Positions 382 through 24,324 of a DNA stretch of 64,000 bases are shown in pieces. Made by a program: the position numbers and the translations under genes. Under the pieces are notes generated by a model, which did not search any database, was not told where the DNA came from, and saw only the letters and a list, made by a program, of their open reading frames with translations. The stretch lies in contig CM119373.1 in the NCBI GenBank assembly GCA_051294905.1, forward strand, positions 1,676,001-1,740,000, given 5' to 3'. Position 1 is the stretch's first letter. The number at the start of each line of letters is the position of its first letter. The DNA is from Botryllus schlosseri. Lineage: Eukaryota.

Positions 382-450
382 TTTTACAGCCGCCAGTTAC
401 GCCCGGGCGGCACCGCATCAGCGCATCCCAAATCTCGCCCAGCCAGTCCC
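382..450 (+). CDS. Possible additional upstream phase-1 exon (LQPPVTPGRHRISASQISPSQS)
   Basis: Acceptor ttgtttcacag, GC-rich open 69 nt, phase 1 to 1; donor gtataa is weak. Confidence 0.3.
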
Positions 451-634
451 GTATAAACTTTAATGAATACTGCGAAGCTCCGCGTCTTGAACATCTACTG
501 TTATTATTGCTGCAACCTCGACGCATCTGCATTATTGCAAAATTCCCTAGTATTCGTACATTTCGTAAAAAAACGGGGCATCAGCTACCTATATGGACAT
601 AAAGGCATTTCGTGACATATTCTAGACTCTAGAG

Positions 635-1458
635 CAGTGATTCTCAAACTGTGTGCTTCGTGAGATTAGTTTGCCGCCAAAGATTCTCAGGTGTGCCGCG
701 TATCATTTTTTCATACATTTTAAAAATGAGGGATTTAGGCTAGCATATCCGACTTGAACGCGTTCAAATTGCTTCATTGCTGATAAATAACCACACGTGG
801 CCATTGCAACGGAACCAATCCAATCACGGCATTGCCGATGAGTTGAGTAATTGACACATAACATGTGGACTGTTTCAAAGCAAGTCTTTACTTGTTTCAA
901 ACTCCCAATGAATCAACTCACAATCAAAAAAATTGCTCAGCATAGCGTTGGCACACGGCCTCGACTTCATCGTACACTGCAATATAAATTCTCAGAATTT
1001 GTTGTTCGCGTTACGTGGGTTGATTGCATGTCCAGCAATAATTTTGCAGAGCAACAGATGATTGATTTACGAAACTCTACGTTTTTTAAACGGTGTTTGG
1101 GTGGGTTTTGACTGTCTTCTTCAAAATCCTATACCGGTACCATGATAGGTACAAAAGCAATCTGAATTTTATTGCGATTTTGATCTTCATGACTTGATAT
1201 GAACATTTGTTTATTGGTTTATCGTTTTGGCTAAAATTAAGAAAAAAAAACTATTCAAGAATTAAGAAAGACTACTTGAAAATGAAATTGACGACGATAT
1301 GTTTGTCAGAAATGCAAGCTGTTTCAGTCGTATAAAGAAGAATAGCCATCGTATTACCACGTATAATATTTTCAAAATGCAACTTTCTTGTAAGTGTGCC
1401 AGGGGTGTTTTATAATTTTTCTAGTGTGCCACATACCGAAAAAGTTTGGAGACCGCTG
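635..1458. mobile_element. Non-autonomous hAT (Charlie-like) element
   Basis: TIRs CAGTGATTCTCAAACT / AGTTTGGAGACCGCTG; TSD ctctagag / atctagag. Confidence 0.75.
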
Positions 1459-2268
1459 ATCTAGAGTGTGCATTTGCGGGGGTCATGTGATCATCACAGT
1501 CCTGATTTCACAGAGGACGCTGTTTCTCAATAATTGTCCATTGCTGTCTTCCATGTATTCGTAGCTGCTCAGCATTTCTGGTGAATGTTCCCTGAGATCA
1601 TAGGTCTTTTTTGAGTAATACCAGTTCAAAATTACAAGACAGAAATATTAATTTACGGTAGGGACATCTAGATATCCCTGATTTACAGTAGCGAGACCGC
1701 TGTTGCCATTTACACCATAAACAAACTGCGCTAGTTCTGATGTCGCTATTGGCTGCTGATAAAATACTCGTCCTGAATAGTGGTGATTTATTTGTCACCA
1801 GTCTAAAATTATGTGTATCTTAGTACACAGTAGACGGCGCTTATGACTTCATGGATCGACCATCGGCAAGGGGTTCTACCTGTGGCAAACAATGACTCAC
1901 GGACGATTAAATTTGTTTTATGAACCCGTGACAAACTATTCAAATCCAGGAAAGATGGATATAAACTGGACACTCTCTTGGTACAACGGGGTTTGCTTAT
2001 GGATATCACGCAGAGTATATTAAATAGGTAAATCGACCGTCCCATGAAAATCCAGAAATTTCTGAACCTAGCCGAACGCAGTGAACTACTGAAGTTCGCA
2101 GACCGTGAGAGTTCGGTCTGAGTGACCTCATTACCGCTGCACAGTAAATCCATTTACTTGTTCGTATTACGTTGTCTGCACACTACTTACATCGAATATG
2201 TCACACCAAGTTCAAAGATAATAGGTCTGAGATTGTGAACAATTCACCATGCAAACTTGCATTTTTAG

Positions 2269-2328
2269 ATAAGCAGCGAACAATACGTGCTGGAGGAAGC
2301 GGAAGAAGAGGAGCATCGAACGAAACAG
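2269..2328 (+). CDS. NLR N-terminal exon, module copy 1a (xKQRTIRAGGSGRRGASNET)
   Basis: gcatttttag|...|gtagcc, 60 nt, phase 1-1; paralogous to 9302-9361 with the same length and frame. Confidence 0.7.
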
Positions 2329-2499
2329 GTAGCCTAGATTTGTTTTTCCGACCCTCGCGATATTCATCAGCTGATATCAAGTAATGCTAGCGTAGCGTGC
2401 CTGATGCGTATAAATCTATGTGCTCACAGCATTAGCTGTACCGGCTCGTGGGTGTATCTATATCGTTCATCTGCATAATTCCGTGATTTACCTTGGTCG

Positions 2500-2682
2500 C
2501 AATGTTCCCTCTGAGCCGCGTACGCGCGCAATTGCTCAGTGCTGACACGGTCTCTGCGCACAGAAAATCTAAGCTGCGCACAAAACTTCCGAAGTTTTTA
2601 ATCGTTACGCACTGTAGTCCAAGGGACCGAGCAGTGAGTTGATGAGTGTGCGCAGACTCGTGAAAAATTAGAGGGAACATTG
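2500..2682. mobile_element. MITE family A
   Basis: TIR CAATGTTCCCTCT / AGAGGGAACATTG; inverted copy at 6947-7140. Confidence 0.85.
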
Positions 2683-2774
2683 TTTGATTGTACCGCCGGC
2701 TTTTACTATAGGCTATTTAGTTCTTCTGCACTAATAAAAATATCATTCGTCGGTGACTGGCATTTGCTTTTCAG

Positions 2775-2837
2775 AAGGAAACCAGGCGTCATCGTGCCTG
2801 GATGAAAGCGGAATATCTGCAACAGCGCAGGTCACAG
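2775..2837 (+). CDS. NLR N-terminal exon, module copy 1b (EGNQASSCLDESGISATAQVT)
   Basis: gcttttcag|...|gtaatg, 63 nt, phase 1-1; paralogous to 9597-9659. Confidence 0.75.
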
Positions 2838-2883
2838 GTAATGAAGTCCTATACATTACCATACCCGTTCGTTATATTATGAG

Positions 2884-3523
2884 TAGGTCGATTTTTTTGA
2901 CCTGATATACGGAAGATTTTGACCTAAAAAATCAAAATTTTGACACTTTTTGACCTTCACAATCTTAATTTCGACCAGACTGTGACCAAATGTATGTTAA
3001 TTAGGTGTTTTCCCAAATAATGGCAGAATTGTACAACTTATTTTCGTTTTTGGTTTGAACTGTCTGTCCTTACGAAGAAGTTTGATCTGAAAAAACTTTT
3101 GAGACTTGAAAACTTACAAATTTTTGCATGAAAAAAATTATTTCAGCAAAATCTGAAACTACAATTTCAGTGGTGACATTACGTATTATTGTAGAAATAA
3201 TTGAAATTTGAGAACGACGAAAGATACTTTCCTTCATTCTCTGGTGGAAAGTGTCTCTATTAATAACTAGCTTGCCAAGAATGGAAAGAACGTTCAACCT
3301 TTTTTTTCAATTTGACCGTTCTTCATTCACAATGATAGGCCAATAAAGTAAGCTACACGCTGTAAAATGTCATATGATAAGTTCCTCCATATAGCCTTCA
3401 TCGACAGTGTAAACAACTCCGATACAAACGAAATGCAGGTTGCAAAATAATTGATTTTGTAAACAAATATTACAATTTTGACAAAATTTTGACTTATTGT
3501 GACACGTCAAAAAAATTGCCCTA
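2884..3523. mobile_element. hAT MITE family B (TTTTGAC subterminal repeats)
   Basis: TAGG...CCTA ends, TSD attatgag / attatcag; homologous to 17567-18431 and a partial inverted copy near 60450-60795. Confidence 0.8.
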
Positions 3524-5572
3524 ATTATCAGTTCTATCGCTTGTGTGTAAATTAGGTACGGCTGCGGTCAATGCAGGTTCACGGTTTGATGTAGGCATCA
3601 ATTATTCAACTTTGCACTCAACTGTGTGTAAGGCTGAAGTCTCAAACTCAAATGAGCTTGCGGGCCAATTTCCTAGTTTTGATGACGCCGCGGGCCGCAT
3701 CAGCATCAATAATGAGGATATTCAATGTATTTCCGAGTAGGCCTTTTCTGACGGGACCTTGTAGATAGGGATTCCACAGTCATCTTAGATGTATAATGTA
3801 CTATTGTATATCACGCTTGACACGGAACAAATTGATATTATCAAATATTTGAAAAAAAATTGTTTTTTAGGGGGGCATAATTTTTTTCATTAATCTGTTA
3901 TATGCATCATAGGAGAGTATGCATCATGCACCCCATGTGATTCCAATGAGATATCATGTTGCCCCTGACCATTTTCAACACAATTTATGATGGTACCTAC
4001 ATGAAAATCAGAAAGCCCATTCACATAAAATCGCGAATAGCACCAATACTATTTTCCAGTTAAATTAATTGGCCATGACAATATTCCAGAGCATATAGGC
4101 CTAATTCCACAATGCATCTCGTGCACCCTGGTGTGGTGTTTCGTACCCTGATGGGGTTTAAGGACCCTGGTTAAGAACCCCTTGAATAAAGATGTTCAAT
4201 TGGCAAAAAATTCATTGGTGTAACAGCTGTAGAGCGTACTAATACCTTTCTCGTCACCGATAATAAAATGGATAAAGAGAACAAACAACACCCAACATGT
4301 AACCAACTATACGTCACGGTGATCACAGAATGCAAATGGTAGCCATACAAACCTGTTTATAGATAGCTACATATTCTACGCATAGCAAGCAACCATGTTT
4401 TGATATATTACTATTCCCCATGACAGTTTCATAGATTGTTTCTCCATAGGAATACCAAGTCACCGTTCCGAGTCGCAAATCCTTGTCTGATTTTACCGTG
4501 AGAGCTGACTCAACTCAAGTAAATTTTATTACCTCGCCCATTTTATCCCAAATCGAGTAATTTTACGAGATGGTCGCACCAAACCAAATCACAATTTTCA
4601 GTCATGAATCATCAAGGGTCATGTTTTATCATCATGAATTAGAAATGTGACGTTATCATATCTTCTACTGCATGGTAGCTTTTAAAAGTGATGTGATAGT
4701 GAAGTTTGTCGAGATTTCAGTGATCTTTATAGTAGTTTTAGGATGAACTTCAAGATCTTATATCTAAAAAAGATATATGGCATCTTGAATATATTGTTGA
4801 ATACTTGAAATTCCCAAATGCCGTCGCGGGCCGCATGCGGCCCGCGGGCTGCGTGTTTGAGACATCTGGTGTAAGGTGTTGCACGAGTAAATTATTTTCG
4901 CACATTATAATGGTAAAAAATCGAACTTTCCATATTTTAGGCATCACTCTCAGATATTGTCAGCAACAAAGGGCTACTTCTTTTGCAGATTACTCAATTA
5001 TGTTTTGCCTACTAATAATAGGCCTACTCCCAAAAAGTGGTCATGTTTTTTGAATGCTGAATGCTTCCACTATTACTCGATAGTAATCCCAAGAAAGTCA
5101 ACTCACCATTGTGGTTTGAATTTTGTTATGTAGAGTGTAGATTTTAACATGTATTAGAAATCACCTCGTCTAGTTGTATTTAATAACAAATTTATGGCAT
5201 CACCTGTAGTTGAGTATCCACGCTGAGTAATACAAACTACTTTATACCTTAGTATTAACTACGTTTATATATGTCAAGAGGCGTCATGCAATGTCATAGC
5301 ATTGTAAACTTGGTCTGCAATTTGCATACTTATAATACTACCCATCCTAATAAGAGTACCCTCAAACATGATTCGTACTTTAAAATATACTTCACACCAT
5401 GAATACTCTATACTCTATAGTTGACTTTCATGTGGATATTCCATTAACTTCCACGTACGTTGATTGAACGCAGTTGAGTAGGTTAGAGATTATACAATAC
5501 TGCACACTACTCTTTTACGTTTTGATTTATATCTTCGCTACTTGATGATATACGTTTTATAATTTTTTTCAG

Positions 5573-5623
5573 GGGAAGGGAAAACATTTCGTTCAGTAAT
5601 GGAGAGAAAAAGATTTTTTGAAG
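5573..5623 (+). CDS. NLR N-terminal exon, module copy 1c (GEGKTFRSVMERKRFFE)
   Basis: tttttttcag|...|gtgatg, 51 nt, phase 1-1; paralogous to 10387-10437. Confidence 0.72.
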
Positions 5624-6067
5624 GTGATGATTCGATATCGCAAGACACTGATATTATTTAACAGTAGCGAGACCACTGCGATCATTTACATTACACCATA
5701 CAGAAACTATGATAATTCTGACCCATCAGCTGTCCACTGATTCATTCCTCGTTTTGGATAGCGATGATGTATTGATCACTAGTCTAAGACTATCTTAGGT
5801 TGGACTTCGGGAGATTTGAAATGATATAACGCTCTTTGACTATGCGAACTAGGGGCTACGTAAACTAACTGAATGATTACGATCGTCCATGATCTGACTG
5901 AATTCACCGTCAAGAATTGTGATCCCACGATAAAACACCCAAAAGTCTTACGAAGATTGTGAGCTATGCCAAATATTTCATTCAAAACTAATGAATATCA
6001 TGTTCGTCAGGCTTTCAAGCGATAGCATCACAATGCCGTGTGCCAATACTAGGTATAGGCTCACCCG

Positions 6068-6574
6068 TAGGACTGGCAAAAATCGAGTAAGCCTACCGGA
6101 GTGATTTGATTCTGAATCACGTATTATGTTCCGAGTCGAGTATTCGAGTATCACTCATTATGTCGTCACAACGAAATTAAGATGTCAAAGTTTAAATATG
6201 TACAGTTTTTGCCACCACAAAAATATAATGCCTGCTCTCTATCACATTAAAGATACTTTGGTATTTTGTCGACTCTACCGATTTAATTGGACTTTGTTAC
6301 AATATTGTGGGAGGATCATGACTTCGGAAATATTTTTCCAGTAACGGTCGTACCTTTGTACTATATGTTTCGCATGCTGCGATCCGGCCAATCAAGGTTT
6401 CAACGCTTCTACAGTAGAAAACATCATCGAAACCATAATTATCGTTGATAAGATTAGTAGCGAGGAGCGCATAATTTCAGTACTCGAAAAAATCGTCATT
6501 TGCTACTCGACTCGAATCATTGGAATAATCACTCGATTCCGATTCGAGTGCTCGAACCATTGTGCTCAGTCCTA
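6068..6574. mobile_element. hAT MITE family C
   Basis: TAGGACTG...CAGTCCTA ends; homologous along its length to 28082-28598. Confidence 0.85.
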
Positions 6575-6946
6575 CTCATCACAAGATCTGGTAACGCAGT
6601 GAGTGTAAAAAAAAAACTACTCCTTGGAATGGCGTATCTGAAATGAAAATATGATTATATGATTACCTCAGGAATAGTAGAGCATAGCAATTGTAACAGT
6701 GTGCACGATGCTCCTTATACAGATCAGCAATATAATCATACTATGTCGTATATTCACATCGGCGGGATAATGCTTGTAATCATGAGCTGTAGATACCTGC
6801 AAAGTGATACCGTTATAAGTAGGAAACGTTTACAAATCTCATGAATATTCAGAAGAATCTAGTCCAGTGCAATGCTCTAAATCCTTTTTCGTCATGGTAC
6901 ACCCTTTTAAGGTTTACTCGAAGAGTCAAAATTCTTACCCCCTAAC

Positions 6947-7140
6947 CAATGTTCCCTCTAATTTTGTCGAGTCTGCGCACACTCACCAACTCACTGCGCA
7001 GACTCTTACACAACACTGCGAAACGACTAAAAAAAAGATCATCACTTCGGATTTTTGTGTGCGCAACTTAGATTTTCTGTGCGCAGAGACCGCGTCAGCA
7101 CTGCGCATTTGCGCACGTTCGCAGCTTGGAGGGTTCATTG
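6947..7140. mobile_element. MITE family A copy
   Basis: Perfect 8-bp TSD CCCCTAAC; TIRs as in 2500-2682. Confidence 0.88.
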
Positions 7141-9301
7141 CCCCTAACCACATAATACACCGATTCTGTGGTAAGCCTTATTCGGGGGTGTTCAACCTTT
7201 TTGCTATTCGCGGGCGCATTTCGACCACATATGTAGTATACGACAGCAGCCCAGTGGTGAGTCCTCATGGCCGTTGTGGTGTTCTCTGCCTTCACTGTTT
7301 TCTTGAGCTATACCTTGTGGATACAGGTCTGTACATGTTGGAGCCACCATAGACTAACTATATATGACGCAACTGTCGCGCGGATCACGAACATTTTTCC
7401 AGCGTCATGAATGAACGTCGTCGATGATGTGGAAAGTTTCGCGTATTTTACTGCCAAATATATTTATCCATAACAAGCCCACGTGATCATATTAACCAGT
7501 AGATTTGTTGGAGGGGGTGTCTTCCAAACTTTGGATCAACAAATCAATGATAATGCATATTCCGATTTCGGTAATCACTTTGTTGCCTGTTGTTATTTCT
7601 CGACCTCCCATAAGGATTGTCGCTATAGCCATGATTCTGACTCGGTATTTCTATATGGAGCGCATCACTCGGCTATGATGCGTTTCGCTTTTGTACGGTG
7701 GTGCTCAGATTGAAAGGACAGTATTACATTAAAAAAAAACATTCAAGTCACCCAGAATCGCGTTACGCGTTAAGAGAACTTTTATTCGAGTTAAAATCCC
7801 ACGGAGGTTGGGGAACCAATTCAAATTGCTTATAGACGGCTGCCAACACAAGCTAATATAAATATGTGTTGACGGCGGTAGAATTATAATTTCGATTTTA
7901 CGGGTGCATGTGGCCGTACCGCCGCAGGATGCACACCTCTGGCTTGATCAGAATAGCAATGAGCAAGGTTGCAACTTGCTAAATGCTAAATACTAAGCAG
8001 GAGTTAAGGTTACCAGACCACCATCCGTCCTGCAATTATAGACACTGCGTCATTTATCAGCATCTGGCATGAACTACCAATTTTAAATTTTTGAGCCATC
8101 ATGGCAGTTTCCTAGGGGATTTTTATATGGACCAGTGGTCGGCAAACTATGGCTCTTTTGGGTATAAGATATGGCCCTTTGCCAAATATTTATTTTTGTA
8201 CTGAATTGGTCAATATTGCAGCGACTTGTTGGTAAATTTTCATGGCGACCAGAATAATTATTCTCGTGGCAGTATAAACATGTCTTTGATAGGTAGAGAC
8301 AATGCCGTCTTCAGGTTTAGGGGCTCGGACCCCCTATTTTCGAAATCCTCAAATTTAAGTGACTGTCACGCCGGCGGAAAATATCACTCGCGAATTCTAT
8401 GTGCCCGACTCGAAGTCTTGCACTGTGCGGTACGTTGATTAATCGAACAGCATAGCAGACATGGCGACGCCCATTTAAAAACGCAGTTTTCAAATACACA
8501 TTGTCTTCCTGATCTGTGATGTGAAATGAACAGTTGTGGATGCGTCATTCACAATTACAAACTTGAATTAAAACAGCGCAATAGCTATCCACTTTCTTGA
8601 TTGGTAAGTATTTAGCTCTGTGTAGTACCGGTTATTAATAGGGTTGCGTTTAAAACAAATGATTGTTTAAAACATCTGAAGCTCTTTTAAAAAATTGTGT
8701 TTTTATTTCAAGTTGTAAAATTATGCCATAATGGTGTAAATATTCTCCGAAAACATGTTAAATGAGCCTATACAAACAACTACAACCCGATTTTCCCCAC
8801 GTGTACGATATGGGATGGTTGGAACCCTCAGAATAGCTATAGCACGTAGGTATTTTGTCAAAAGAGCTGTATTTACGATATATTATCAATTGTCAACGTC
8901 AATCCACAATTACGTCACAATTGAACATTCATGACGACATGGTCTAAAACAATTCAATAGAAACATGTTTTAAACAAGGACCTTGTTTTAAAGATGTTTG
9001 TTTTGTATTGATTTTGTTCTTTAAGGCAAACTTAGTTATTAGGGTGAGATATTTACAACACCCATGAATATTCAGAAGAATCTAGTCTAGTTTCTACCCA
9101 ACAGCAACAAATTACTTAGTTTCGCAGACCGAGCATAATCGAAATAGAACTATATGGTTATTACCATTCCACAGTAAATTATTTACTCGTTCGAATTAGG
9201 TTGTGTGACGACTGTATAGTCTGAACATCCCACGTGCCATATAAAGTTAGAAGATATTCTCGATATTCGGGTAATTCACAATTCAAGCTTTCACTTCTCA
9301 G

Positions 9302-9361
9302 GTAAGCAGCAAGCATTAAGTGCTGGAGGAAGCGGAAGAAAAGAACCGGCGAACGAGACAG
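9302..9361 (+). CDS. NLR N-terminal exon, module copy 2a (GKQQALSAGGSGRKEPANET)
   Basis: cacttctcag|...|gtagaa, 60 nt, phase 1-1. Confidence 0.7.
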
Positions 9362-9596
9362 GTAGAATTTCATCTTTTCGCTCTGGGTATTCCGTTTTAC
9401 TTGTATGAAGTATGGTCATGATCCGTTCAAGTAAATATGCTCGTAGTATTAGACGCCCTGGATGCTGGATGTATCGATAGCCTTTGTAGGCGTAATTCCG
9501 CGATTGACGTCGATCCTGTCGTCCCGGTCAGGCGATATAAGCTTCACCGAGACTATTAAAAAGCCCATACATTTATCACTGTCATTCGCCTTTCAG

Positions 9597-9659
9597 GTGC
9601 AGATCAGCTGTCATCGGGCTCAGAAGCCAGTGCCGGGCGTGCAACAACGCATGTGGCAG
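9597..9659 (+). CDS. NLR N-terminal exon, module copy 2b (GADQLSSGSEASAGRATTHVA)
   Basis: cgcctttcag|...|gtaatg, 63 nt, phase 1-1. Confidence 0.75.
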
Positions 9660-9819
9660 GTAATGAATTCCCATATTGCCCCCATTGGCAAGGTTATTAG
9701 ACGTGTGGCTAGATAAACTCGTAAATGAGGCAAGTCTACGATTCGTGTTGACCTAAGCAGCATCTTAGTGGACAAATTTTTGTTTCCACATCCACTTGAA
9801 GTTGCTTTGACATGTTACT

Positions 9820-10266
9820 TAGGCTTACCATACGTCCTCTTTTAAGAGTATTTGTCCTCTTTTTTGACTTTTTGAAAAGTGTCCTCGGAGGACGCCCTTT
9901 TGTCCTCTTTTTTGAGAATTTGTCCTCTTTTTTGAAAATATAGGTCAGATATAGAGCAAATTGCGAGTGAAATGTCGCAAATTAGCACAGAAGTGACGCT
10001 GCGGCGGATATTTCGGAGTGAAAAACGGTGAATTTAGCTCTGATCGAAAAGATGACCTTTTTTTTTTTTTTTTTTTTATTCATTCACCTGGCAATGTGGA
10101 GAAAAAAACGGTATTTTGAGCTCTGAGCGTAAGTGATGACCTTTTTTTTTTTTTTTAGTCAACCGATCACAATGTGGGAAAAATTCACCGGTTTTTGAGA
10201 ATTCTACTCCGGTTTTGCATCTTTCAAAGTGTCCTCTTTTTACATTTTCAAAATATGGTAAGCCTA
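9820..10266. mobile_element. hAT MITE (TGTCCTCTTTT repeats)
   Basis: TIR TAGGCTTACCATA / TATGGTAAGCCTA; perfect TSD ATGTTACT; related fragment near 53032-53290. Confidence 0.9.
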
Positions 10267-10386
10267 ATGTTACTGAAGATATTCCGCATGGGATTGATGC
10301 GAGGAGTTGAACTGGTTAAAGCTATTACAATACTTATTTGGCTACCATATATAACTCTTTATCATATTCGTTCATCATCTTTACAG

Positions 10387-10437
10387 AAGAAAGGAAAACA
10401 TCCCGTTCAGTCATGGAGAGAAAACGATTGTTTGAAG
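10387..10437 (+). CDS. NLR N-terminal exon, module copy 2c (EERKTSRSVMERKRLFE)
   Basis: catctttacag|...|gtgaaa, 51 nt, phase 1-1. Confidence 0.72.
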
Positions 10438-12739
10438 GTGAAAAACATTACATCCATTCGAACAGATGAATCATGTAGTTATGCATCCGACGCGCTATGA
10501 AACTTAAAATATATACGGACGTGAAAGGCAAAACAAGTCGACAATAATTCGTTGTCCTTCGAAAATAAATCACATATGGAAAATACCAAGCCCGTTTCAT
10601 TCAACATTCAAATAGTACTGTCTGGAAGCGCATATCGAACACAGGCGTGAACGTTGCGTCCACGCCGTCTTCACAGTGAACACGGTTCATGCAAAGATGC
10701 ACTCGGTGACTTCATGAAAGCGTATTTTATGCTTTCTAATATTTATATACTATACAACCATCCCAAACAATCGTTAAAAGAAATCAATTATACATACGGA
10801 TGATTTACAGAAATGAGTCGCCCCTATGGGGAATAGGAACGCGTGCGTCCAATCATGGTAACCCAGTTTATCATTACATGCACGTCCAATGTAACTAGCA
10901 AAAATTCATTCATTAAACATAAAATATTTTCATGCTTTACACGTGTAAGAAAAAAAATGCGCGGCCGGCCGATGAAAATCAATAGACTAGTCTTTCGTCC
11001 TAAAATTGTGTTATCCCTCCGTTCGATACGGAAACATTGTGTTTTGGTAGTGATGAAATTGTCCGTCTCAGAAAATACGATGAAACCGCTATGCAGACTC
11101 GATACCAGCGTTTGGTGGGCAGACGGCCGGTAGGAAGTTTCAACATGCGATTCTGCAAATTGAAAAAAGATCTGAGACGATAATACCCTGACCATAAATA
11201 ACCGGCACATGGGAGCCTGTTCCTTAGATATTGACATATTCAGGAGCTGAAACGTCAGATACCGAATAGTCCTGTCCCTGTCACCTGTACTGGGCGCTAC
11301 AAGTGCGAGCCGTGGACCAAAATGATGCGCCCTTTAAACATACTGATCTTGAATCCAGGTCGTATAACGAAATGAAACCTTCTTTTAATTTGGTCTGATA
11401 AATGTGGCGATTCGATGTTTTTGATTACCGACAATGTTTACCGTAGGTAACGACATAGTAACCTTCCACGATATAATTATTAAAAACGACGTCGACCGAA
11501 GCAAGCCCAGCTCAAAAACTGTATGAATATAGTCTTAGGCGTCCAGCAGAAGCGTGGCTCATGTTCTGTAATCAGTAATTGTGTTAACTAAACTTTCGAA
11601 AACACCACCTCCATCAACGCTAATAGTAAATTTGGTCACTTGGGCTGAGAAGGGATCATAATAGTATTAATATCCTCAAGCACCATATAATTGATATTAT
11701 TCAGTCATATCGTGCGATTGACAATCTATATTCATTGTACACTGACTGCTTATAGCCAGGGGTACTGCGCTCAAAATAGGATTTGTTCTCAAGTCTTTTT
11801 CTTCAGAACCATGAACCATATTCGGAAAGCTGCTTAAATATTTTAAGACATGCGCCATCACTCACCACACTCTAATTGCAGCTATATACGTATGTCTGTA
11901 TCATGGACATCACTTGTCATAGCTTCACCCGAAGAGAGATGAGATGCATTGCTGAGTAAGAGTTCTTTGACTGGACGCGACATTATCATATTTGTTTAAA
12001 AAAAAAGCTGTTTCCTAATTTTGTTGCCTCATCGTACGGTCACAGCCAAAGTTTGCTTCGGATGCGATTGAACTTATTATAATTCCATTCCCCTCCGCTT
12101 ATCTTTGTAAGAGTTGATTCCGGCACCAGTTCATATCAAATTGATGGCGCAGACTTTCAAGACGCGACCACGTATTTCAACAGTTCGAGACAGGCTTCTG
12201 GCATGTAACTGCAGAGAAATTATATTCGTTAGGTGAATTCACTTTGAAACGAATGAAGACGTCTTTATCAATTATCAATTAGTATGATTTTCATTTACGG
12301 AAAAGTGCAGTTTCAACAGCTTATATTAGGTAAATTCGTTCAATGAATGGAATTGATCGAAAACTGTATCTCGTGTATTCATTTGATTCGTAATAAATTG
12401 CACAAATTTGCATCGTGCAATGGCGCAAATGCATCGATTTATTTATATCAAGTGGTAGATATTCAAACATGAAGTTGATTGATATTTATCAGCCCATTGT
12501 AGTATACATCAGCACTATCACAAAATAGCATCGATGCCACAACATACATTTCTGACGATAGACGCGAATTATTCACATAGCCCCCAACCACCATCGTATG
12601 CGTTTCGGGAAAATTATAACTAATAATAAGTAATAAATTTGTCACGTGATCACTAATCACTGCGATTTAATAATTTGTGGGCGGATCAGATTTATTTTTG
12701 TGGCCAACTGTTAATTCACTGCTATATTTGTTGTTTCAG

Positions 12740-12814
12740 AAAAGAACCGCCGTACCCAATCGCCTGGAAGCTCAGCAGAAATGTTGAAGAAAGATCGTCT
12801 AAATGTGAAAGCCG
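12740..12814 (+). CDS. NLR N-terminal exon (EKNRRTQSPGSSAEMLKKDRLNVKA)
   Basis: ttgttgtttcag|...|gtaagg, 75 nt, phase 1-1, open. Confidence 0.75.
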
Positions 12815-13750
12815 GTAAGGAACAATCATGTTTGCTTTGAAAACGGAAGACGTTGTTCGTCACCGCGTCGTACATATTGGCGTCGGCGGTGGCTCGTCCC
12901 CTAGGGCAACTGAGTCTGCCCATGTGCTGTAGCAATATTAGCTACAATATAGTATAGACCTATATTTACATTTGCATCTGCCCAAGACATAATACACAAT
13001 ACGATACAAACGACAAAATACGATGGAACAGTCAGATAAGAGTAATGGGAAACGAGAAAATACGGCGTAATGCCCGGTGACACGGAGTTCGAAATTGATT
13101 TTTGGGCGCCTTTCCTTGACGCCGTAAGAAGAGTAACACAGGTGGAGTGTTCCAGATGAAGCTATATACGCTTCGGATACTGGCAATAATAATATTGTAC
13201 AGCGCAGATTACGGAAGACGTGATTTAACTCCACAGACTCCCCTATATTAAACAACATAGAGCTGAGCGGCCGGAAGTTTAGAGCTGAACCAATATATGA
13301 ATATGAAAAATGAGCGAGGGGAGCCAAGCGTTATATGCCGAATGCTAATTACAGTCCATTCGTTTATTCAAATATATCCTATACTATGAGAATGCGGGTA
13401 GTAAAACCTATGATATCAATCTTGCATTATCTGGTATTGTTACATTTCAAAACATCAATGTACCCGCTTTAACATGTGGATTCGGCACGCTTCAAGGCAT
13501 CCATTTGGATTCTGCATTGTGCGACACACCTAAACACTGAATTGTGAACCCGCTACTAGTGTTGTGACTGTGTCGTAAGCCGCACACAGCGCCATTCACG
13601 TCTCTAGTCTTTATGATGAAATGACGAAAATAATTGGAATAGGGTATATATTTGACTTGAAGATTGAAGTTTTGTATCTCGCATGGAATTTTGTCACACT
13701 TCGGTGCCACAGTCCTGAACGGTGTCTGACTGGATCAATTCTTATAACAG

Positions 13751-13804
13751 GGCAATCTCAGCGAGGTCAGGACACCAAGAATTCGCCAGAACCTGATGGT
13801 GCAA
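13751..13804 (+). CDS. NLR N-terminal exon (GQSQRGQDTKNSPEPDGA)
   Basis: cttataacag|...|gtgagt, 54 nt, phase 1-1, open. Confidence 0.75.
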
Positions 13805-14176
13805 GTGAGTTCCTCCATAAATTAGTCGAAATCATGGTAATTGGAAATCTTACATGGATGAATAAATTCTACCATGTTCTTTCAAATCGAATCGAATTCA
13901 GTACGTAATACACAATTCCGAAATGTTTGAACACTGTTTTTTTTTAAAATTCAATAATATTCCAATTCCTTGAACTGGTGGATTTAGAAATACGCTTAAT
14001 AATGACCCCAAGTGGTATGTGGTATCCTGGTTAAGAATCCATGGTGTAGTGCATGTGAAGAATTAAATTTCCACGGCGAACGTGCGGTACAGAACACATA
14101 GCTTTTTCTATACTGATGTCGCTGTTATGTTTTTTCCAATCTACCTTCGGCTATGGCTAAGTAATGCCCTCATACG

Positions 14177-15469
14177 CAGACTTGGACAACTAGATAATTT
14201 TAGTTGTCTAATTTCAATAAATTAGAGCGAAATGCAAGTAATCGAATTCTAATCTAGTTTGCGAAATGTTTCTATGCTCTAATTCCAATTCTAATTCTAA
14301 TCTAATTTTCGATTTGTTGTGTTCTAATTCCAATTCTAATCTAATTTGCGAAATATTCCTATGCTCTAATTTCAATTCTAATCTAATTTATTGTTTTACT
14401 AAAAATGCCGTCTTTTCGCGGCATTTTGCAGCGAGTTAACAAGAACATCCCTCTTGCAAAGGGAATCTAGTGACAAGCCGCCATTGCATCACTTACACCG
14501 TATAGGATCATGATAGTAGGTATTGTGCAACGAATGATAGTCATGCTGGCAATATAGTCTGCAAACATCATTCCAGTTTCGATCACAAACAGAACAACAG
14601 CGAAAAAAAGTGCAATCACAGGTTTGTTCACTTTCATGCCCTCAACTACACCAACAAAGAAGATGATGGTTACTTCATATCTAACCAAAGAAAATATATT
14701 AGAGGATGAGGTGGAAAGATATTTCGCAGCAGAGAGTGTGATCTTGGACTGTGATGTTTTGAGTTACTGGAAAAGAGAAAATATTTTTCCTCATCTGCAG
14801 GCTGCTACTGTTCGAGAACTCGTAGGCATCACCCTGGGTCGATTTCTAAACGTCTAGGTCTTGGAAGTGTTCAAGCCATCGCACGTCATGGAAATATGCT
14901 TGTTCCTATCAGCTGACTCCACATCTATGGAATGCTTTTGCCATCGCCGGAGCCATTTCAGCTAGTGATGAATAGTGATATTAGGCACAGGCAAATAGAT
15001 TTTTTGAAAAAACAACACTAATAATTTGAAACTGAAATCAATTTCATCAATTCAAAATCCGTTATTCCGCGTTCTTCCCAAATCACGAATCAGATCGCCG
15101 ACCGCAAAATATGACCTCGTGGGCCTCATGTTGATGACCCCCTGGTATACAGAACAAAACGGACCAAGCTTGGTGTACAGACGTTCGCCATAACCATTGT
15201 CATGGTTGTGGGAATGCACTTGATATGAACTGAACTGTTGGCTGTATTTATTTCTCATTCATAATTTCATTCAATTTCCACGTTTTTGCGATTTCAGTGA
15301 TTCTAATCCTATATATCTGTGTAGCTCTAATTCTAATTATAATCTAATTTTGAAAACAACGTGTAGCTGTAATTTTAATTCTAATCTAATTTGGGAAAAG
15401 TTGTGTAGCTCTAATTCTAATTCTAATCTAATTTGGAAAATCTGTAATTTTTCTAGTTGTCCAAGTCTG
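14177..15469 (+). mobile_element. Internally deleted hAT (Ac-like) element with C-terminal dimerisation-domain remnant
   Basis: TIR CAGACTTGGACAACTAGA; perfect TSD CTCATACG; TTCTAA/TCTAAT subterminal arrays; ORF 14624..14857 EDEVERYF...DVLSYWK...FPHL; partial copy near 63130-63280. Confidence 0.9.
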
Positions 15470-15667
15470 CTCATACGTAGCCTGCGTGAAAATTGTGATA
15501 AGTGTGAAACACTTCTTCAACTAAATCAGCTAGACGATTAGGTTTATATAACAGCGAATAAAATTATTATAAGGAAATATACCATACCGCATATCACAAA
15601 TGGAATTTACGATCAATATAAATATATATCGATAATCATAAGTTACTGGGTTTTGTATTACCAACAG

Positions 15668-15760
15668 ATTATGCAACATTAGCCGAAGGCGATCAGGTCA
15701 ATCAAAGTTTTGAAAACAGCACAGTGAACGTTGTTGCAGGAGACCAATACATCACCAATG
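15668..15760 (+). CDS. NLR exon with candidate amyloid-signalling motif (NYATLAEGDQVNQSFENSTVNVVAGDQYITN)
   Basis: ttaccaacag|...|gtaagc, 93 nt, phase 1-1, open; not in the ORF track because it is short. Confidence 0.8.
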
Positions 15761-16409
15761 GTAAGCTACGTGAAACTTTCCAGCCTGCACGATATTGACT
15801 TTTCTGCACCGCACTTCGAGTTAACTCGGGGTAAATGAAATATATCGGGATCGACGTCACAGTTTAGCTTTTTATTCATTGATATATTTTGAGAATATAG
15901 ATATCGGATATGCTTTCTTTATCATAAAAACGTCTGCAGGAACGCATAAACCTGCATGTCCCTAGATTTATCAGAACACGTGCATCACGCTCGATGAAAA
16001 GTTAACCTTAATTCATCCACTCAAGCTTGATGCTGACCGATCGAAGACCATTAATTCTGCAATCGGCAAACATCTGTTGAATAATCTGATTTGTGCGAAT
16101 AATTACCGAGACGACAAATTTCGGGTTATTGGGCGGGGCCGTTCACACTTCCACTTGTGTGCCTTGGAGTCGACTTTTATCAAAATACACCAACCGAAAC
16201 TCTATCAACAGAAGGAGTTCGTGTACCACCTAGGAATAGTGCAATGAACGCTCTCTCATTCGATGTTTCATGCTGGCGACGTCATATTTTGTGATACGAT
16301 TGTTGATATACAATGTTCTCTCTTATTCTCTACTAGGTGCTGACGATTACCCCTGACGAGTGTCAGCCGCAAATATAGTCGCGTTAATTTCAATATGAAT
16401 ATACTATTG

Positions 16410-17380
16410 CAGTGGTTCCCAACCTTTTTCGTCTCGTGGCCCCCTTGGCCGATATTTGAAGTGATATTCCCCCCATATGAAAAATTTGCCTGTGACAAAA
16501 AAAGGTGCTTCTTAACGCACAACCATTTGTTGACTGAGCAATTGCTGGATAATCATATTCAGATATGTCCGAACTATGACGAATGCGGACCGCACTACAC
16601 TGTGGTAAAGTACAGCTAAATTTGACCTGATTTTACCGTATAGCCGCTGACGAAAAATAAATCACCAAGTCCGCTTGCTATGGCCTTGAGTCGAATCGAT
16701 GAACTTTATGTTTTCACATTAGCTCATATGTTGACTTGAAAAGGTAAACACTTTCGGCAGTGGCCTTGTGCTGAATTCGGCGTGACGTTTTCCTGCTTAG
16801 TAGCAATTTGGTCGGGAGGCTGTCGCGGGCCCAACGAAACCGTCTCGCGTGCATCACTTCATCAGGGGGTGTAATATCTACGGAAGGCATTTAAATATGC
16901 ACCCAGCTGAAAATCCGCCAAATAAACATACAATTGTAAAGAATTAGTTTCTACATAACAGTTCTACCATAATAATCTAAAAATCTTGTGAACCCAGTTT
17001 GTTTGTTTAGTTCATGGTGTGTGTTGAATACTATGGTCATTTACACCAGGCCAATTTCCCCATTTTTTAATTCCGTAGCGGCCGACTTATAGAACGGACA
17101 ACTTACAGGCTTTATAAGACACCGCTAACACGAATGAGATGGCAAGGAGGAGCCTAGATAAACCCCTGACACTTAGGTAGGGATTCTTGAGTCGATCTTG
17201 GTTGGACTCGAACCCAGAACGCATTGGTGTTGCAGCTGTAGAGTTTACCACTACGCTATCTCACCACACATTGTGAACCAAGTGTGTCTTCTGATGCAAC
17301 GTCAAAGCCAGATTCCCCCTAAAAATTTCGAAATTCCCCCCAAGGGGGGGAATCCCCCCCCCCCCGGTTGGGAACCACTG
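16410..17380. mobile_element. hAT (Charlie-like) non-autonomous element carrying nested fragments
   Basis: TIR CAGTGGTTCCCAACC / GGTTGGGAACCACTG; perfect TSD TACTATTG. Confidence 0.88.
17105..17268 (-). mobile_element. tRNA-derived SINE (tRNA-like head at about 17198-17268)
   Basis: Minus strand GTGGTGAGATAGCGTAGTGGTAAA...CTGCAAC...GGGTTCGAGTCCAACCA: Pol III A box and B box; anticodon stem does not pair well; 3' boundary approximate. Confidence 0.65.
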
Positions 17381-17566
17381 TACTATTGAATCATACATGA
17401 TAAACCGAGGAATGATATAAAATAATACCAAGGTACAACCTGATAGATATTAATAATTATGGCTTCATTATTTGAAAAAGTAAATTCTGTTCATATTGTA
17501 ATTTTCTCAAAAATGCCGCTTGTAAAATTTTGCGAACCTTGAATCATGTTGATTATTAGTAATAAT

Positions 17567-18431
17567 TAGGGCGTTTTTTTACCTTAAAAAAGGTAAATTT
17601 CGACCTAAAAATTTAAATTTTGACTTATTTTGACCTAACCAAAATGAATTTTGACCAAATTTTGACTTAACGTATGCAAATTAGGTGTTTTCCCACATGA
17701 TGTTAAAATTGTACCACTTATCTTCATTTCTGGTTGGAACTGACTGTCCTAACGAAGTGGTCTGGCATGAAAAAACGATTTTGGCTGAGAAACATGCAAC
17801 ATGTTACACGGAAAAACAAATATTTCAACGAAATCTGGCCATATGAAGAATTCCAGTGGTTACAATATGTATTATGGTAGAAAAAATTAAAAAAATTTGT
17901 GGTACAACGAGAGATATTTTCCTACATTCTTGGGTAGAAAGTGCATGTCCTTACTAAGAAGCTTGCCAAGGACGTTCAACAGCAGCAGTTGTTGGCTGAC
18001 AACACTCAAGATGTGCGTACACTGCTGGTGAAACACCGTGTTGCTTCATTCTGACAATGTTGTCTACATCACAATTTTTCATCAAGCGCTTCTTAATATA
18101 AAAATGATGCAATGCGCAATAAGTCTTTCTGCAGTTAGGATATTGCGGTACGTTGACCATAACACCATGTTTACCTACTTGTTTTATTTGACCGTTTATG
18201 ATTCACAATGAGCAGATAATTTGCCGTTTACAACGGTAGGCCTATAACATAGGCTACAAGCTGTAAAATATCAAATGATAAGTTCACCGACAGTGCAAAA
18301 TCGACGATACGAACGAAATGCTGACGTCAAAAAACTTTTGACTTTATGAAAAATTTTGACAAATTTTGACCTAACGCTACAATTTTGACAAAATTTTGCA
18401 AATTTTGACATGTCAAAAAAAAACCACCCTA
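17567..18431. mobile_element. hAT MITE family B copy
   Basis: TAGGG...CCCTA ends; perfect TSD GTAATAAT. Confidence 0.88.
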
Positions 18432-18619
18432 GTAATAATTTATTACACGGAAATACTTTCCTCTGCTGCTGCTCTTCGTCTTCCAATAGGCTATATATAC
18501 AACAGAGTCAATCTTGACACCTATGGGGCTCTCCCCGTCAACGGAGTTTGACGAATCTGCTTCTTTTAGAACTAGGTTAAGCCCATGCATTACTCATTCA
18601 CAATTTGCACTTGTAACAG

Positions 18620-18691
18620 AAATCCATGTGACGCCACCATCTGATATCCCAGAAGATAATTTGGAGCAAGAGCGATTGCGATTAGAAGCGG
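18620..18691 (+). CDS. NLR linker exon (EIHVTPPSDIPEDNLEQERLRLEA)
   Basis: cttgtaacag|...|gtaggt, 72 nt, phase 1-1; lies within ORF 18514..18801. Confidence 0.8.
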
Positions 18692-19221
18692 GTAGGTACC
18701 TCGAATTTGATGTTAACGCGATGCAGGGCCATATCGAACTGCTGTTAACGGAATGTCATTCCCTAAAGCTGAACATCTGTTTCACGTCACAGTCTGCTTA
18801 AAAAATGTAAAAGGCAAAAGTAAATGGTTCGTTTCAAAACAGTAATTGTCAAACTGGGGTGGGATGGTGGGGAAGGGGGCGTGAACGCATCTGAAAGGCA
18901 GCGTGAAGCCGTCCAAGAGAAATGAAGTTTCTTGAACTCGAATTGAGTTTACGTTGACAGGAAAGTCCAAGTTTCAGCAACGGTAATAAGCATACTCATA
19001 GTACGATTTGAATGTCATAGCTGGTCGTAACAACCATACATCGATGTTAGAATGTGATGATACCGGACCTTGCAGCGATTAGATGATGTCTAAAAATTAA
19101 CAGTGATTGGTGAATTCATGTAGGGGTTCGTAGATGCTTCTGTGTTCCTTCTGTGAAGGATCTGTACAGCCTGCGTAGAACGACACGAAGTTATCAAGAA
19201 ATAAGATGTATTCGTATGAGG

Positions 19222-19940
19222 CAGGGGTGGCCGGCCTTTTCGGCCGATGGGCCACATATAACTGACGAAACATTGTCCAGGCCACTCTCCTCGCCATGCG
19301 CGAATATTTTTCAAAGTTTATAGGTCAATAATATTGTTCCTTGAGTGAATTGCGGGTCTGCTGTAAATCGGTCGGCTCATTTTGCAAGGACAGGATCATT
19401 CGGCATTTGGACATATCGATATCGAAAACTTCGGCGAACGTGCGTGAATCATTTTGTGCCTAGAGGTTTCATAGTCGACGGTCTTTCTGCGAGCGCCAAC
19501 GCAAGGTCGCCTGTTGGACGACACTTTCTCTCGTAATTGCGAATATAGTTCCACTCACTCTGGTACATTCGGCGTTTTTTTTCATTTTCAGGACAATGTA
19601 CGACAGGTAAAAATATTAAAAGCAAGAAATCGAATGACAACATATTGTGCGAAGCGTGAAAACTTTTGTTACTTGAGATAAATATACCGCAAAATATGTT
19701 ACTTTATTGTAATATACGAAGATCAACCAAGAATATGACTGACCCATGAATCTGCTAATGCGTCGGAAGTGATATTTTGGTCATCAGCATCCCAAGTGTT
19801 GCCGACATACTAATCAAATTTTAGGTTGGCCTTGCAAGTTCACAATCTGAGCAATATATTTTTTCTAATGTAACTAATTTAGAAAATTACGTCGCGGGCC
19901 ACCCAAAACCTTCTCGCGGGTCACGGGTTGGCCTCCCCTG
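19222..19940. mobile_element. hAT MITE family D
   Basis: CAGGGGTGGCC / GGCCTCCCCTG ends; homologous to 51170-51898. Confidence 0.8.
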
Positions 19941-20728
19941 GTATATGGTCATTTCATATGCCATGTATTATAAGACTTCTGTATCGAAGAAACAATGATT
20001 TAGATTTTTAATCTAAGTGTGGCAGAACGTCAAAGAATAGCCACTCCTAGTATATACTCAATTAGGACACATTTTTATAATGCCACTCTCAAGAAGGACA
20101 TCTTATGGCAGCCCAAAAGTAATAATTTAATTAGTCACTTGCGGAATACCTGCGACCCGTAGACAAGAATTGTTTTTTTTCCTACATAAATGTGTCAAGT
20201 TTGGAAGGCGTGCTGCTTATGGTCAGGTACGATTGAGCCAAGCCCAAGTCAGGAAATAGAAGGTATTACACAGCAAAATCGCTAAAATATGTTTATATGT
20301 TGCGTGTTACCATTTTACATGATTGATTTTGGCAAATTATTCAACTGATAGTTACCTCCAGCTCTTATTTATGGATATGTGTATATCCTTAATTTCAGAT
20401 CCATCCACTTAAACTATGCATTGGGATTGTAAACCTTCAGATTGCTCTTTAAATATAAGTATCACATTGTACTGAAGATGTAATATATAATTAATTCAGT
20501 ATCATATTTGTTGTATGTTGTATATAATTTTATTATACCACTTACCGGTTAATGAAATCACAATTTCAAAATTTTCAACGATGAACACCGTGTAATAAAG
20601 GTTGCGAACTCCTGATGTAGAGCAAGCAGACAAAACTATATACTAGAAATATATAATTCCCACGTTGCTGGCCGCCGTGTTCCGTTTGTTCATGACCGTG
20701 TAAAGTTGAGAACTAATATTGTTTACAG

Positions 20729-21861
20729 TGAAGGGATTTTTAGCGAAGACGAAACATCATTTACTAAAGGAGATAGGTGGACATCTTACCAAAAAAGCCC
20801 GACCTACCATGATGGTTGTCGACACAAAGGGTACAAGTGCAGCAGATCATCATGCTGGAGGAAAGTCATTATTCGGCCGTGATCTGGAAGAAATCAGTCT
20901 CGATCAACTTCACGATTCAGAACATCAGATAACTACCAAGCATGTCCTGATCCTCGGAGAAGCCGGGGCCGGGAAATCCACTCTTTCCAAAATGTATAGC
21001 CTGGCTGTCGCCGAGGGCAACGTCAAGACTCTTGACAGCGTCCAACTCGTTCATTTCGTATCTGCCAATAAGCTACAACCTCGTAGCCCGACTACTGCTT
21101 TTCGTCTGTTATTCACCGAGCAAATGGCTCACGACCCTAAGACTGAACTGAGCCCTCGTGAACAAAAATATGGCGAACAATGGTTGGAAAAAAATTCTTC
21201 CATGATGTTAATAACAATTGACGGCCTCGATCAATGTTTGGAAGAATTCGGCAGTGATAAATACCCTAGAGTGATAGCGACCACCCCCGCAAAAGCCAAC
21301 GACATCATCGCAAACATCATGTCCGGCAGTATATGGCGCGATGCTCGCGTTCTTACAACATCGCGCTGGAACACCTATTGGAGCATTACAGTTGATCAGG
21401 AACCTGGCAAAGTAGTAGGTCTCAGAGGACTAGACGACAAAAACTTGAAAGACATCGCGTTCACCCAATCAATTGACGGTGATCTAATGCTGTCCCAACT
21501 CGAAAATTCTTCACCTAAATTGCTGTCTTTGTGTCGAAATCCCATGTTTCTCAACTATACGACGAAATTGTTTCAAAACAACCGCAATAGCCTACCAGAT
21601 AGCCTTGCTGGTCTCATGGCAGCATTCTTCCGCGAATTTCTTAGCTCTCAATCCGAAAAATACTACGGTCAAATTACAAAGCTAGGTTATGACGCAATGC
21701 TGGAAAGTAAATTCGTTTTCCCACCCAGCTATTTGAGCATCCACGGAATCGATTCAAAGCTTCTCGATGACTTCCTGTCTACCGGAGCCATACTCGAGGA
21801 GGGTCATAAGACCGTTAAGTCATTCAACAAATCATCCGAGTTCTCTCATCAAACGATGCAG
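20729..21861 (+). CDS. NACHT NTPase exon (NBD, HD1, start of winged helix)
   Basis: ORF 20719..21885: Walker A GEAGAGKST, Walker B LITIDGLDQ, sensor-1 VLTTSR, GLRGL, LCRNPMFL, FSHQTMQ; gtttacag acceptor (phase 1), gtgagt donor (phase 0). Confidence 0.95.
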
Positions 21862-22000
21862 GTGAGTGTTGATGTAGCATTTTAAAGCTAAATGAAATTA
21901 TCTCTTTGAAATTACTTTTCGTGTGGGACTCAGTAGTCTTGCAAAAAAAGTCATGATTGCTCATAATGTATACCCTTGCTGTCGTCACATTCCCCAAGAG

Positions 22001-24161: not shown

Positions 24162-24324
24162 GAGTTTTGCTGCGCGTTACACGTCCCGAATTTGCCGATA
24201 GAGGAAATAAAGGCGTTCGTTACAAACGAACTGAACGACAGTAGAATGGAACTGACAAGACAACTTCTGTACGGGTTAATTTTGGATGACAAAGTTACCG
24301 AACCGATGACCAACTACCTTGCAA
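24162..24324 (+). CDS. NLR winged-helix/HD2 exon (EFCCALHV...RQLLYGLI...NYLA)
   Basis: gttcag|GAG TTT completes the FxHxxxQEFxxA motif; gtaagt donor; phase 0-1; 163 nt. Confidence 0.92.

Follow-up and report, generated by a model that had tools for sequence, protein, structure and literature searches.

NLR immune receptors are commonly portrayed as proteins that begin with a death-fold or TIR domain and continue with a nucleoside triphosphatase (NTPase) domain and then with repeats. In zebrafish, groups 2–4 of the NLR-B30.2 receptors carry several peptide repeats of ~30 amino acids before the NACHT exon, according to the consulted sections of Howe et al. (2016, PMC4852459). In the amphioxus Branchiostoma floridae, RHIM-NACHT proteins have a RHIM at the place of CARD-like domains, as presented in the sections available to us of Kajava et al. 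(2014, PMC4262963). NLR-associated amyloid motifs have been described for fungal NWD2/HET-S and for bacteria, in the consulted parts of three reports (PMC5485727, PMC4518210, 10.1101/2020.01.06.895854). Here, we analyzed a 64,000-nucleotide stretch of the genome of the ascidian Botryllus schlosseri (hereafter, the window; C3:1676001–1740000, on contig CM119373.1, within a 495.5-Mb assembly). We propose, with a probability of about 0.6 for the explanation as a whole, that the window holds the 5' half of one NACHT gene with a modular tail of symmetric mini-exons, made up of a disordered linker (e1–e8) and two constrained exons (e9 and e10). The gene family is probably large, lineage-specific and ascidian. 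In its design, the gene reads as a lineage-specific variant of the zebrafish peptide-repeat NLRs, which are its closest analogue; a likeness of design is meant here, and homology is not implied.

AG...GT segments open in phase 1-1 were enumerated on the forward strand. Ten mini-exons (e1–e10, Table 1) are each preceded by AG, followed by GT, and have a length divisible by three. When spliced in silico by coordinates to the NACHT exon, they gave a stop-free product of 592 amino acids, 214 of which precede the NACHT exon, with a G/S/A/E/K/R fraction of 0.55. The codons created at the successive junctions, from e1 to the NACHT exon, encode E, G, G, G, E, E, G, N, E, and V. Every exon ends with G or A, and the following exon starts with AA, GG, GT, AT, or TG; hence, skipping any subset of exons creates no stop codon. 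The initial annotation of this DNA had listed ten exons of these lengths, all of phase 1-1 and in frame with NACHT, encoding about 214 amino acids, mostly of low complexity and rich in G/S/A/E/K/R, and had reasoned that any subset could be skipped without a frameshift. All ten were found at 2269–18691 (+), the size and composition of the tail were as described, and the arithmetic of skipping is correct and extends to the absence of stops at every junction.

Table 1. Coding features of the NACHT gene in the window. Positions count from the first nucleotide of the window; a slash within a donor marks the splice site.
Feature	Position	Strand	Length (nt)	Phase (in-out)	Description
e1	2269..2328	+	60	1-1	Module A, KQRTIRAGGSGRRGASNET; weak G/GTAG donor
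e2	2775..2837	+	63	1-1	Module B, GNQASSCLDESGISATAQVT
e3	5573..5623	+	51	1-1	Module C, EGKTFRSVMERKRFFE
e4	9302..9361	+	60	1-1	Module A, second copy
e5	9597..9659	+	63	1-1	Module B, second copy
e6	10387..10437	+	51	1-1	Module C, second copy, ERKTSRSVMERKRLFE
e7	12740..12814	+	75	1-1	Module D; basic, Ser-rich
e8	13751..13804	+	54	1-1	Module E, QSQRGQDTKNSPEPDGA
e9	15668..15760	+	93	1-1	Conserved motif exon (the 'amyloid-like' exon of the initial annotation)
e10	18620..18691	+	72	1-1	IHVTPPSDIPEDNLEQERLRLEA; last exon before the NACHT exon
NACHT exon	20729..21861	+	1133	1-0	Walker A GEAGAGKST
Next coding exon	24162..24324	+	163		EFCCALHV...LLYGLILDD...; continues the NACHT module

The NACHT carrier is an open frame of 391 amino acids at 20710–21885 (+) that matched Pfam PF05729 with E = 1e-13 (51.9 bits vs a cut-off of 26.7). 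The gene thus encodes a NACHT NTPase domain, including the Walker A motif, and in this respect agrees with its assignment to the NLRs in the initial annotation. The exon is bordered by the acceptor ttgtttacag/TG at 20729 and the donor CAG/gtgagt at 21861. Its own genome contains 27 NACHT paralogues with at least 45% identity across the entire exon, and the phase-1 acceptor lies at the identical position in 11 of 12 paralogue loci. Entry into the NACHT exon in phase 1 calls for a preceding exon with a phase-1 end in each of these genes. A database frame of 420 amino acids, 51% identical to the NACHT exon, was set aside because it reads across both splice sites and is thus genomic.

Phase 1-1 AG...GT candidates are plentiful by chance (805 in one enumeration, 427 in another). 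The existence of e1–e10 alone is hence no proof, and the case rests on a splice-site matrix, on the exon borders in paralogues, and on the alignment of exons and flanks. The matrix was trained on 22 paralogue exons, none of them taken from the window, and was used to score the 427 candidates on the forward strand. By rank, the claimed exons came out as e8 (1), e6 (2), e7 (3), e9 (4), e2 (5), e10 (7), e5 (8), e3 (10), e4 (30), and e1 (85), that is, eight of the ten were within the top 10 of 427, including four of e1–e6. A score of at least 14.8 was reached by ten of the 427 forward-strand candidates (eight of the claimed exons, e2 with an alternative donor, and an additional candidate) vs 1 of 459 on the minus strand. 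In the reverse test, a matrix built from the ten exons of the window recovered the paralogue exons, with 0–2 matches on the control strand. An extra candidate exon at 10159–10257 (+) (99 nt, phase 1-1, score 17.7, containing 'FENST') was rejected because of its poly-T acceptor and its location within a repeat. This repeat draws many partial RNA reads, with a depth of up to 68 at 9437–10103 in RNA run X8.

In six paralogue regions (par1–par6), homologous exons keep their AG/GT borders, a length divisible by three, and phase 1-1. Counting the copies in the window, kept borders were seen in 10/10 e9-type, 6/6 e10, 4/4 e8, 5/5 e1/e4, 3/3 e2/e5, 3/3 e3/e6, and 2/2 e7 copies, in what is a lenient test, paralogue borders being taken as the nearest in-phase AG and GT. 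Pooled identity, by a crude method, was 0.68 for exons vs 0.33 and 0.20 for the two flanks. All six e10 copies (par1–par5 and the window) are 72 nt long with unchanged borders, and those of par1–par5 lie upstream of the NACHT exon. Copies of e8 were found in par1 (two) and par3, a 75-nt homologue of e7 with equal borders in par6, and a 63-nt homologue of e2 in par2 (19671–19733). The A-type copies (two in the window, one in par1, and two in par2) are all 60 nt long and all have the weak G/GTAG donor. The copy of e4 in par2 is 85% identical; the e1 copy of par1 is not independent because positions 1–2672 of the window are a 91% duplicate of par1. A DNA copy of e6, 84% identical and with equal borders, sits at C1:24704266; the NACHT paralogue found 10.5 kb downstream of it is only 54% identical. 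DNA searches of the own genome with e6 and e7 were insensitive (e6 gave two matches and missed e3, and e7 gave only itself). The initial annotation had suggested a comparison of exon structure across paralogues, and every exon type recurs with the same borders and phase. Collectively, these results show that the mini-exons go beyond chance frames.

The order of modules is also kept at a distance. In region par6 (contig C1, NACHT exon 54% identical), an exon fusing types A and B is followed by exons of types C and D, the motif exon, a possible counterpart of e10, and lastly the NACHT exon, which is the order of e4–e10 in the window minus e8. That a different chromosome has kept this order is the strongest reason to assign the distal modules to the NLR gene. 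The A/B exon of par6 (L035:7707–7781, 75 nt, KQHMIHSGRRRLREPTDCTTTHGT) resembles a fusion of modules A and B and, judged from the sequence, shows that module borders themselves vary between subfamilies.

Exons e1–e3 and e4–e6 form a duplicated triplet, with exon identities of 82, 59, and 84%. The introns of the triplet no longer align (446 vs 235 nt, and 2735 vs 727 nt), and the flanks of e3 and e6 are likewise unalignable. Module content differs among the paralogues: A, E, F, E, F, G in par1; A, B, F, A, B, F, G in par2; E, F, G in both par3 and par4; and two F plus one G in par5. Moreover, e2 lies within 624 bp that are absent from an otherwise 91–95% identical and collinear block of par1. 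The triplet duplication, the number and order of modules that vary among paralogues, and the absence of e2 in par1 show that the tail has been diversified at the DNA level, with symmetric exons gained, lost, and shuffled among paralogues.

We also noted that positions 1–5411 of the window correspond to par1 at C3:1400997–1404545 as a mosaic. The 5' flank and e1 are 91–95% identical and the NACHT exons only 81%, and relative to par1 the window has insertions at 2672–3296 (which holds e2) and 3633–4869. This pattern suggests a partial duplication or gene conversion. Two motif-exon copies per gene are present in par1, par2, and par5; one of the copies in par1 is only 75 nt long and ends just after the ...VAAG turn.

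This organization resembles that of the zebrafish NLR-B30.2 (NLR-C) receptors, for which the consulted sections of PMC4852459 describe short pre-NACHT peptide modules, one per exon, that are shuffled between NACHT subgroups and vary in copy number, with NACHT on one large exon. The ascidian modules, by contrast, are shorter, at 17–31 amino acids, and fall into at least seven sequence types, one of them a motif conserved across the family, and the ascidian NACHT exon gave no FISNA match.

Exon e9 is the family-wide motif. An alignment of ten copies (A1) gave the consensus xAILAEGDQVxQxFxNSTVNVVAGDQYI. A search of the own genome with a single motif exon returned 116 matches at E ≤ 1, and 57 of these lay within 30 kb upstream, on the same strand, of 109 NACHT matches. 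When compared with the union of 151 NACHT loci, 71 of the 116 motifs were within 30 kb upstream on the same strand, two were downstream, and none was on the opposite strand; both the motif and the NACHT lists are lower bounds. Seen from the other side, at least 67 of the 151 NACHT loci carry the motif upstream. By these counts, the motif is a common pre-NACHT element of this lineage, and the layout before NACHT is not unusual within this genome, contrary to the impression left by the initial annotation.

Distant copies, 12 in all, came either from remote NLR subfamilies or from sites with no NACHT locus listed, and each of the 12 is again a phase 1-1 exon. Their alignment (A2) is homologous to A1 (hhalign, 99.1%, E = 5.8e-19), and the two share the core T-V-N-V-V-A-G-D-Q. 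With A1 as input, AlphaFold2 predicted a beta-hairpin for e9 (strands 9–13 and 18–22) with a mean predicted local distance difference test (pLDDT) score of 77.8. A prediction of a four-copy e9 complex, run without an alignment, scored 0.02 vs a mark of 0.32.

Selection on the tail was assessed by Nei-Gojobori counts of nonsynonymous (pN) and synonymous (pS) differences. For pooled e9 copies, pN was 0.16 and pS 0.62, and for e10 pN was 0.21–0.33 and pS 0.39–0.89. Within the linker, pN and pS were 0.08 and 0.31 for e3 vs e6, 0.16 and 0.39 for e6 vs par6, 0.27 and 0.56 for e7 vs par6, and 0.21–0.23 and 0.39–0.41 for e8. The values were 0.18 and 0.15 for e1 vs e4, and 0.40 and 0.41 for e2 vs e5. 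Thus, the proximal modules are constrained at the protein level, strongly so for e9 and e10, and amino-acid constraint across e1–e8 is weak or absent. In modules A and B, the exon form is retained and the sequence is not, as expected of a disordered linker or of decaying relics. Disorder, the prediction of which the initial annotation had suggested as a check, was judged from composition only: with a mean hydropathy of 0.382 vs a charge-hydropathy boundary of 0.415, the tail falls on the disordered side, and the NACHT exon falls on the folded side. Several linker modules contain basic-x-x-Ser sites. A protein atlas comparison gave a best score of 0.79, with unnamed clusters.

None of 174 forward-strand frames of at least 45 amino acids, from 20 kb upstream of the window through the NACHT exon, matched a death-fold or TIR domain, in a scan that shorter or very divergent exons would escape. 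The lack of an adjacent death-fold domain that the initial annotation had noted thus stands as far as was scanned. The sole matches over the cut-off among these frames were to a long terminal repeat (LTR) retrotransposon (RVT_1, RT_RNaseH_2, RT_RNaseH, and Integrase_H2C2), 16–20 kb upstream. The pol region of this element is at L017:418–3696, and a closely similar element (L049:1176–5337) lies between a motif exon and NHL repeats on contig C8. A phase 1-1 open segment, GHDPRGQKINPSSE (L016:5243–5287), ~4.76 kb upstream of the window, resembles an e8-type module of par3, QKPRGQNVNPSSEPIA, and hints that more tail modules, or a relic, precede the window.

We postulate that the pre-NACHT tail is assembled from small phase 1-1 exons that have been duplicated, lost, and reshuffled among paralogues in the DNA, exon symmetry allowing modules to be gained or lost without breaking the frame. 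Modules e1–e8 would form a disordered linker rich in Ser, Gly, Arg, Lys, and Glu that sets the reach of the tail and perhaps its regulation. Exon e9 encodes a beta-prone motif of ~28 amino acids, common to many NACHT genes here, at the position that a death-fold domain takes in other NLRs. Oligomerization of NACHT might then cluster the e9 motifs into a homotypic beta-strand surface to which downstream partners could be recruited.

Several observations weigh against this reading. Four bulk RNA runs (X4, X6, X7, and X8; 1.0–1.9 billion letters each) were compared with positions 2100–22099 of the window at 92% likeness. No reads were placed on the exons, and depth was 0 in the NACHT bin at 20776–21442 and at most 0.07 in the following bin, which amounts to no transcript support; nearly all placed reads were partial repeat matches (2478 of 2495 in X4), and GT..AG ends were seen in none of the 15 RNA joints listed, out of 38. 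Neither a start codon nor a first exon turned up in the window or within 20 kb upstream, where the initial annotation had suggested that a start exon be sought: the open frame just upstream of e1 contains no in-frame ATG, and a scan for first exons gave 16 ATG-to-donor candidates, none of them conserved or convincing. The pairs e1/e4 and e2/e5 showed no purifying selection (pN ~ pS), and e1 and e4 were poor on the splice matrix; both pairs could be relics. Forty-five of the 116 motif matches have no listed NACHT locus downstream, the NACHT lists being lower bounds. Lastly, the e9 motif matches no known interaction family, and its homotypic role is one that we infer. Overall, the inclusion of the first six exons in the mRNA is the least certain part of the proposal.

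Some of these points would also be accounted for if only e9 and e10, and perhaps e7 and e8, were present in the mRNA, with e1–e6 as decaying duplication relics and the start exon between e6 and e9. The missing start codon upstream of e1, the pN and pS values of e1/e4 and e2/e5, and introns full of repeats all point in this direction. However, every A, B, and C copy has kept its length, open frame, and AG/GT borders, pN is below pS for e3 vs e6, and four of e1–e6 are in the top 10 of the splice matrix. Furthermore, another contig carries, in the same order, an 84% identical C-type exon before a NACHT paralogue of only 54% identity. On balance, we consider it unlikely that the coding structure is confined to the proximal exons.

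The frame-neutral joins raise another alternative, which the initial annotation had put forward, namely that e1–e10 are cassette exons skipped in combination, so that one gene yields a repertoire of N-termini with and without the e9 motif. Weak splice sites are typical of alternative exons, and the weak G/GTAG donor shared by all five A-type exons, together with the ranks of e1 and e4 on the matrix, is compatible with alternative use, no more. Any subset of exons can indeed be removed without a frameshift or stop, yet the four RNA runs gave no junction read, and the differences among paralogues are hard-wired in DNA. The strong purifying selection on e9 and e10, and their presence in every paralogue examined, argue for constitutive use, and the variable modules are low-complexity linkers, the shuffling of which would add little diversity. 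A repertoire generated by skipping is, in our judgment, quite improbable.

Returning to the gene with a constrained e9 motif behind a modular linker, we considered whether this motif is a divergent RHIM, which would make the gene the tunicate counterpart of the amphioxus RHIM-NACHT proteins. The likeness is one of position and character. As in the B. floridae proteins (PMC4262963, consulted in part), a short non-globular motif sits before NACHT in an invertebrate chordate, where a six-helix CARD-like domain is usually found. The e9 motif is short and prone to beta structure, with many N, Q, V, and G residues and with disorder on its flanks, and it occurs in two copies in some paralogues, as RHIMs can according to the same partly consulted source. 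Nevertheless, e9 failed all RHIM comparisons that were run. Pfam at E ≤ 10 gave no match for e9, e10, e7, e2, or e5 of the window, and the 12 distant motif copies gave no match to RHIM, with one unrelated weak match to DUF3577. Profile searches against all PDB sequences had no RIPK1, RIPK3, or HET-s chain among the matches listed. The RHIM core tetrad is I/V-Q-I/V-G, whereas the core of the motif reads V-N-V-V-A-G. In addition, tunicates appear to be without RHIMs in the sections consulted of PMC4262963. Membership of e9 in the RHIM family was accordingly rejected on the Pfam, PDB profile, and core-tetrad comparisons, and a divergent RHIM is very unlikely.

A hidden Markov model (HMM) search of 1.84 billion protein representatives likewise returned only short look-alike frames and repeat proteins. 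Fifteen proteins were matched at E ≤ 0.001, and 11 of them were examined closely. Eight are single-stretch frames of 40–107 amino acids (P0004, P0006–P0009, and P0012–P0014) and resemble this very exon, either from the present genome or from a close one, and three are repeat proteins matched in multiple stretches; the remaining four matches are long proteins, again with multiple stretches. The consulted parts of the literature on ascidian NLR N-termini made no mention of a motif of this kind.

The fungal and bacterial amyloid motifs offer another, more distant comparison. In the consulted parts of those reports, a short motif lies N-terminal to the NTPase and is expected to act by homotypic templating after oligomerization of the receptor. 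The position of the ascidian motif, with 71 of 116 copies upstream of NACHT loci, fits the N-terminal placement of amyloid signalling motifs. On the other hand, none of these motifs matched e9 in sequence. The amyloid systems are defined by a partner effector, usually a neighbour, that carries the same motif, and the sole lead here is a cluster of NHL-repeat loci on C8 (see below). One might go further and view e9 as a tunicate-specific homotypic, possibly amyloid-like module that replaces the death-fold domain or RHIM in at least 70 NLR genes and is shared with non-NLR partners such as the C8 NHL-propeller genes. Oligomerized receptors would then template their partners as in NWD2/HET-S, and the linker array would tune access to the motif or, by skipping, switch it. 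We offer this extension tentatively, and as a whole it is doubtful.

A search of public proteins with the NACHT exon returned a single named relative, Styela clava LOC144429750 (P0001, 1271 amino acids). Its NACHT region is 25% identical over 91% of the length of the exon and has the same ...SHQT(M/I)Q end; ~300 amino acids precede NACHT, and the Pfam domains listed for the protein are only PF05729, PF17776, and PF20720. Unlike the B. schlosseri gene, it has no match to the e9 profile (hmmsearch with filters off, best domain of -3.3 bits), and its N-terminal region is not alignable to the mini-exon tail. A likeness of e9–e10 to the N-terminus of this protein, noted by eye, was dropped, as neither hmmsearch nor blastp supported it.

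If the proposed gene structure is correct, this would be a chordate family in which the signalling end of the receptor is a short beta-prone motif within a disordered tail of frame-neutral mini-exons. It would provide a testable candidate for NLR signalling without death-fold adaptors in ascidians, and a clean case of symmetric exons permitting fast modular change in an immune receptor. For annotation, such genes are invisible on open-reading-frame tracks and would be truncated by gene predictors.

The C8 lead consists of three motif exons at 3863738, 3917728, and 4008646 (+), each phase 1-1 and 138 nt long. Three members of a tandem set of four NHL-repeat loci (Pfam NHL, up to 1.9e-14) follow these exons on the same strand, at distances of 4.2, 8.3, and 7.2 kb, respectively; the regions concerned include C8:3863338–3869200 (L039/L050) and C8:3917328–3927820 (L038/L049). 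In the copy examined, the interval from the motif exon to the NHL frames held no frame of NACHT size, and the longer of the motif-NHL gaps contains an LTR retrotransposon. As tandem duplicates with 85% identity, the C8 copies count as one event. The NHL frame contains an ATG of its own, and the phase of the sole candidate acceptor does not permit a direct join to the motif. The C8 arrangement may represent a carrier of the motif outside the NLRs, or the joint duplication of two neighbouring genes.

Downstream of the NACHT exon, the next coding exon is bounded by the acceptor ttcag/GAG and the donor A/gtaagt, is 85% identical to par2, and had no Pfam match. No repeat domain, whether of the leucine-rich repeat type or another sensor, was found among 13 frames downstream of the NACHT exon. 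The gap between the two exons (21862–24161) spans 2.3 kb in the window, and ~34 nt separate the aligned blocks in par2 (31609–31643), in which the intron may be tiny or absent. Farther downstream, transposon-type frames at 25108–25857, 28961–29815, and 30633–30998 (+) match zf-RVT (7.4e-06, just below the cut-off), DUF4371 (5.3e-18), and THAP (1.4e-10), and a further frame lies on the minus strand at 33576–34235 (-).

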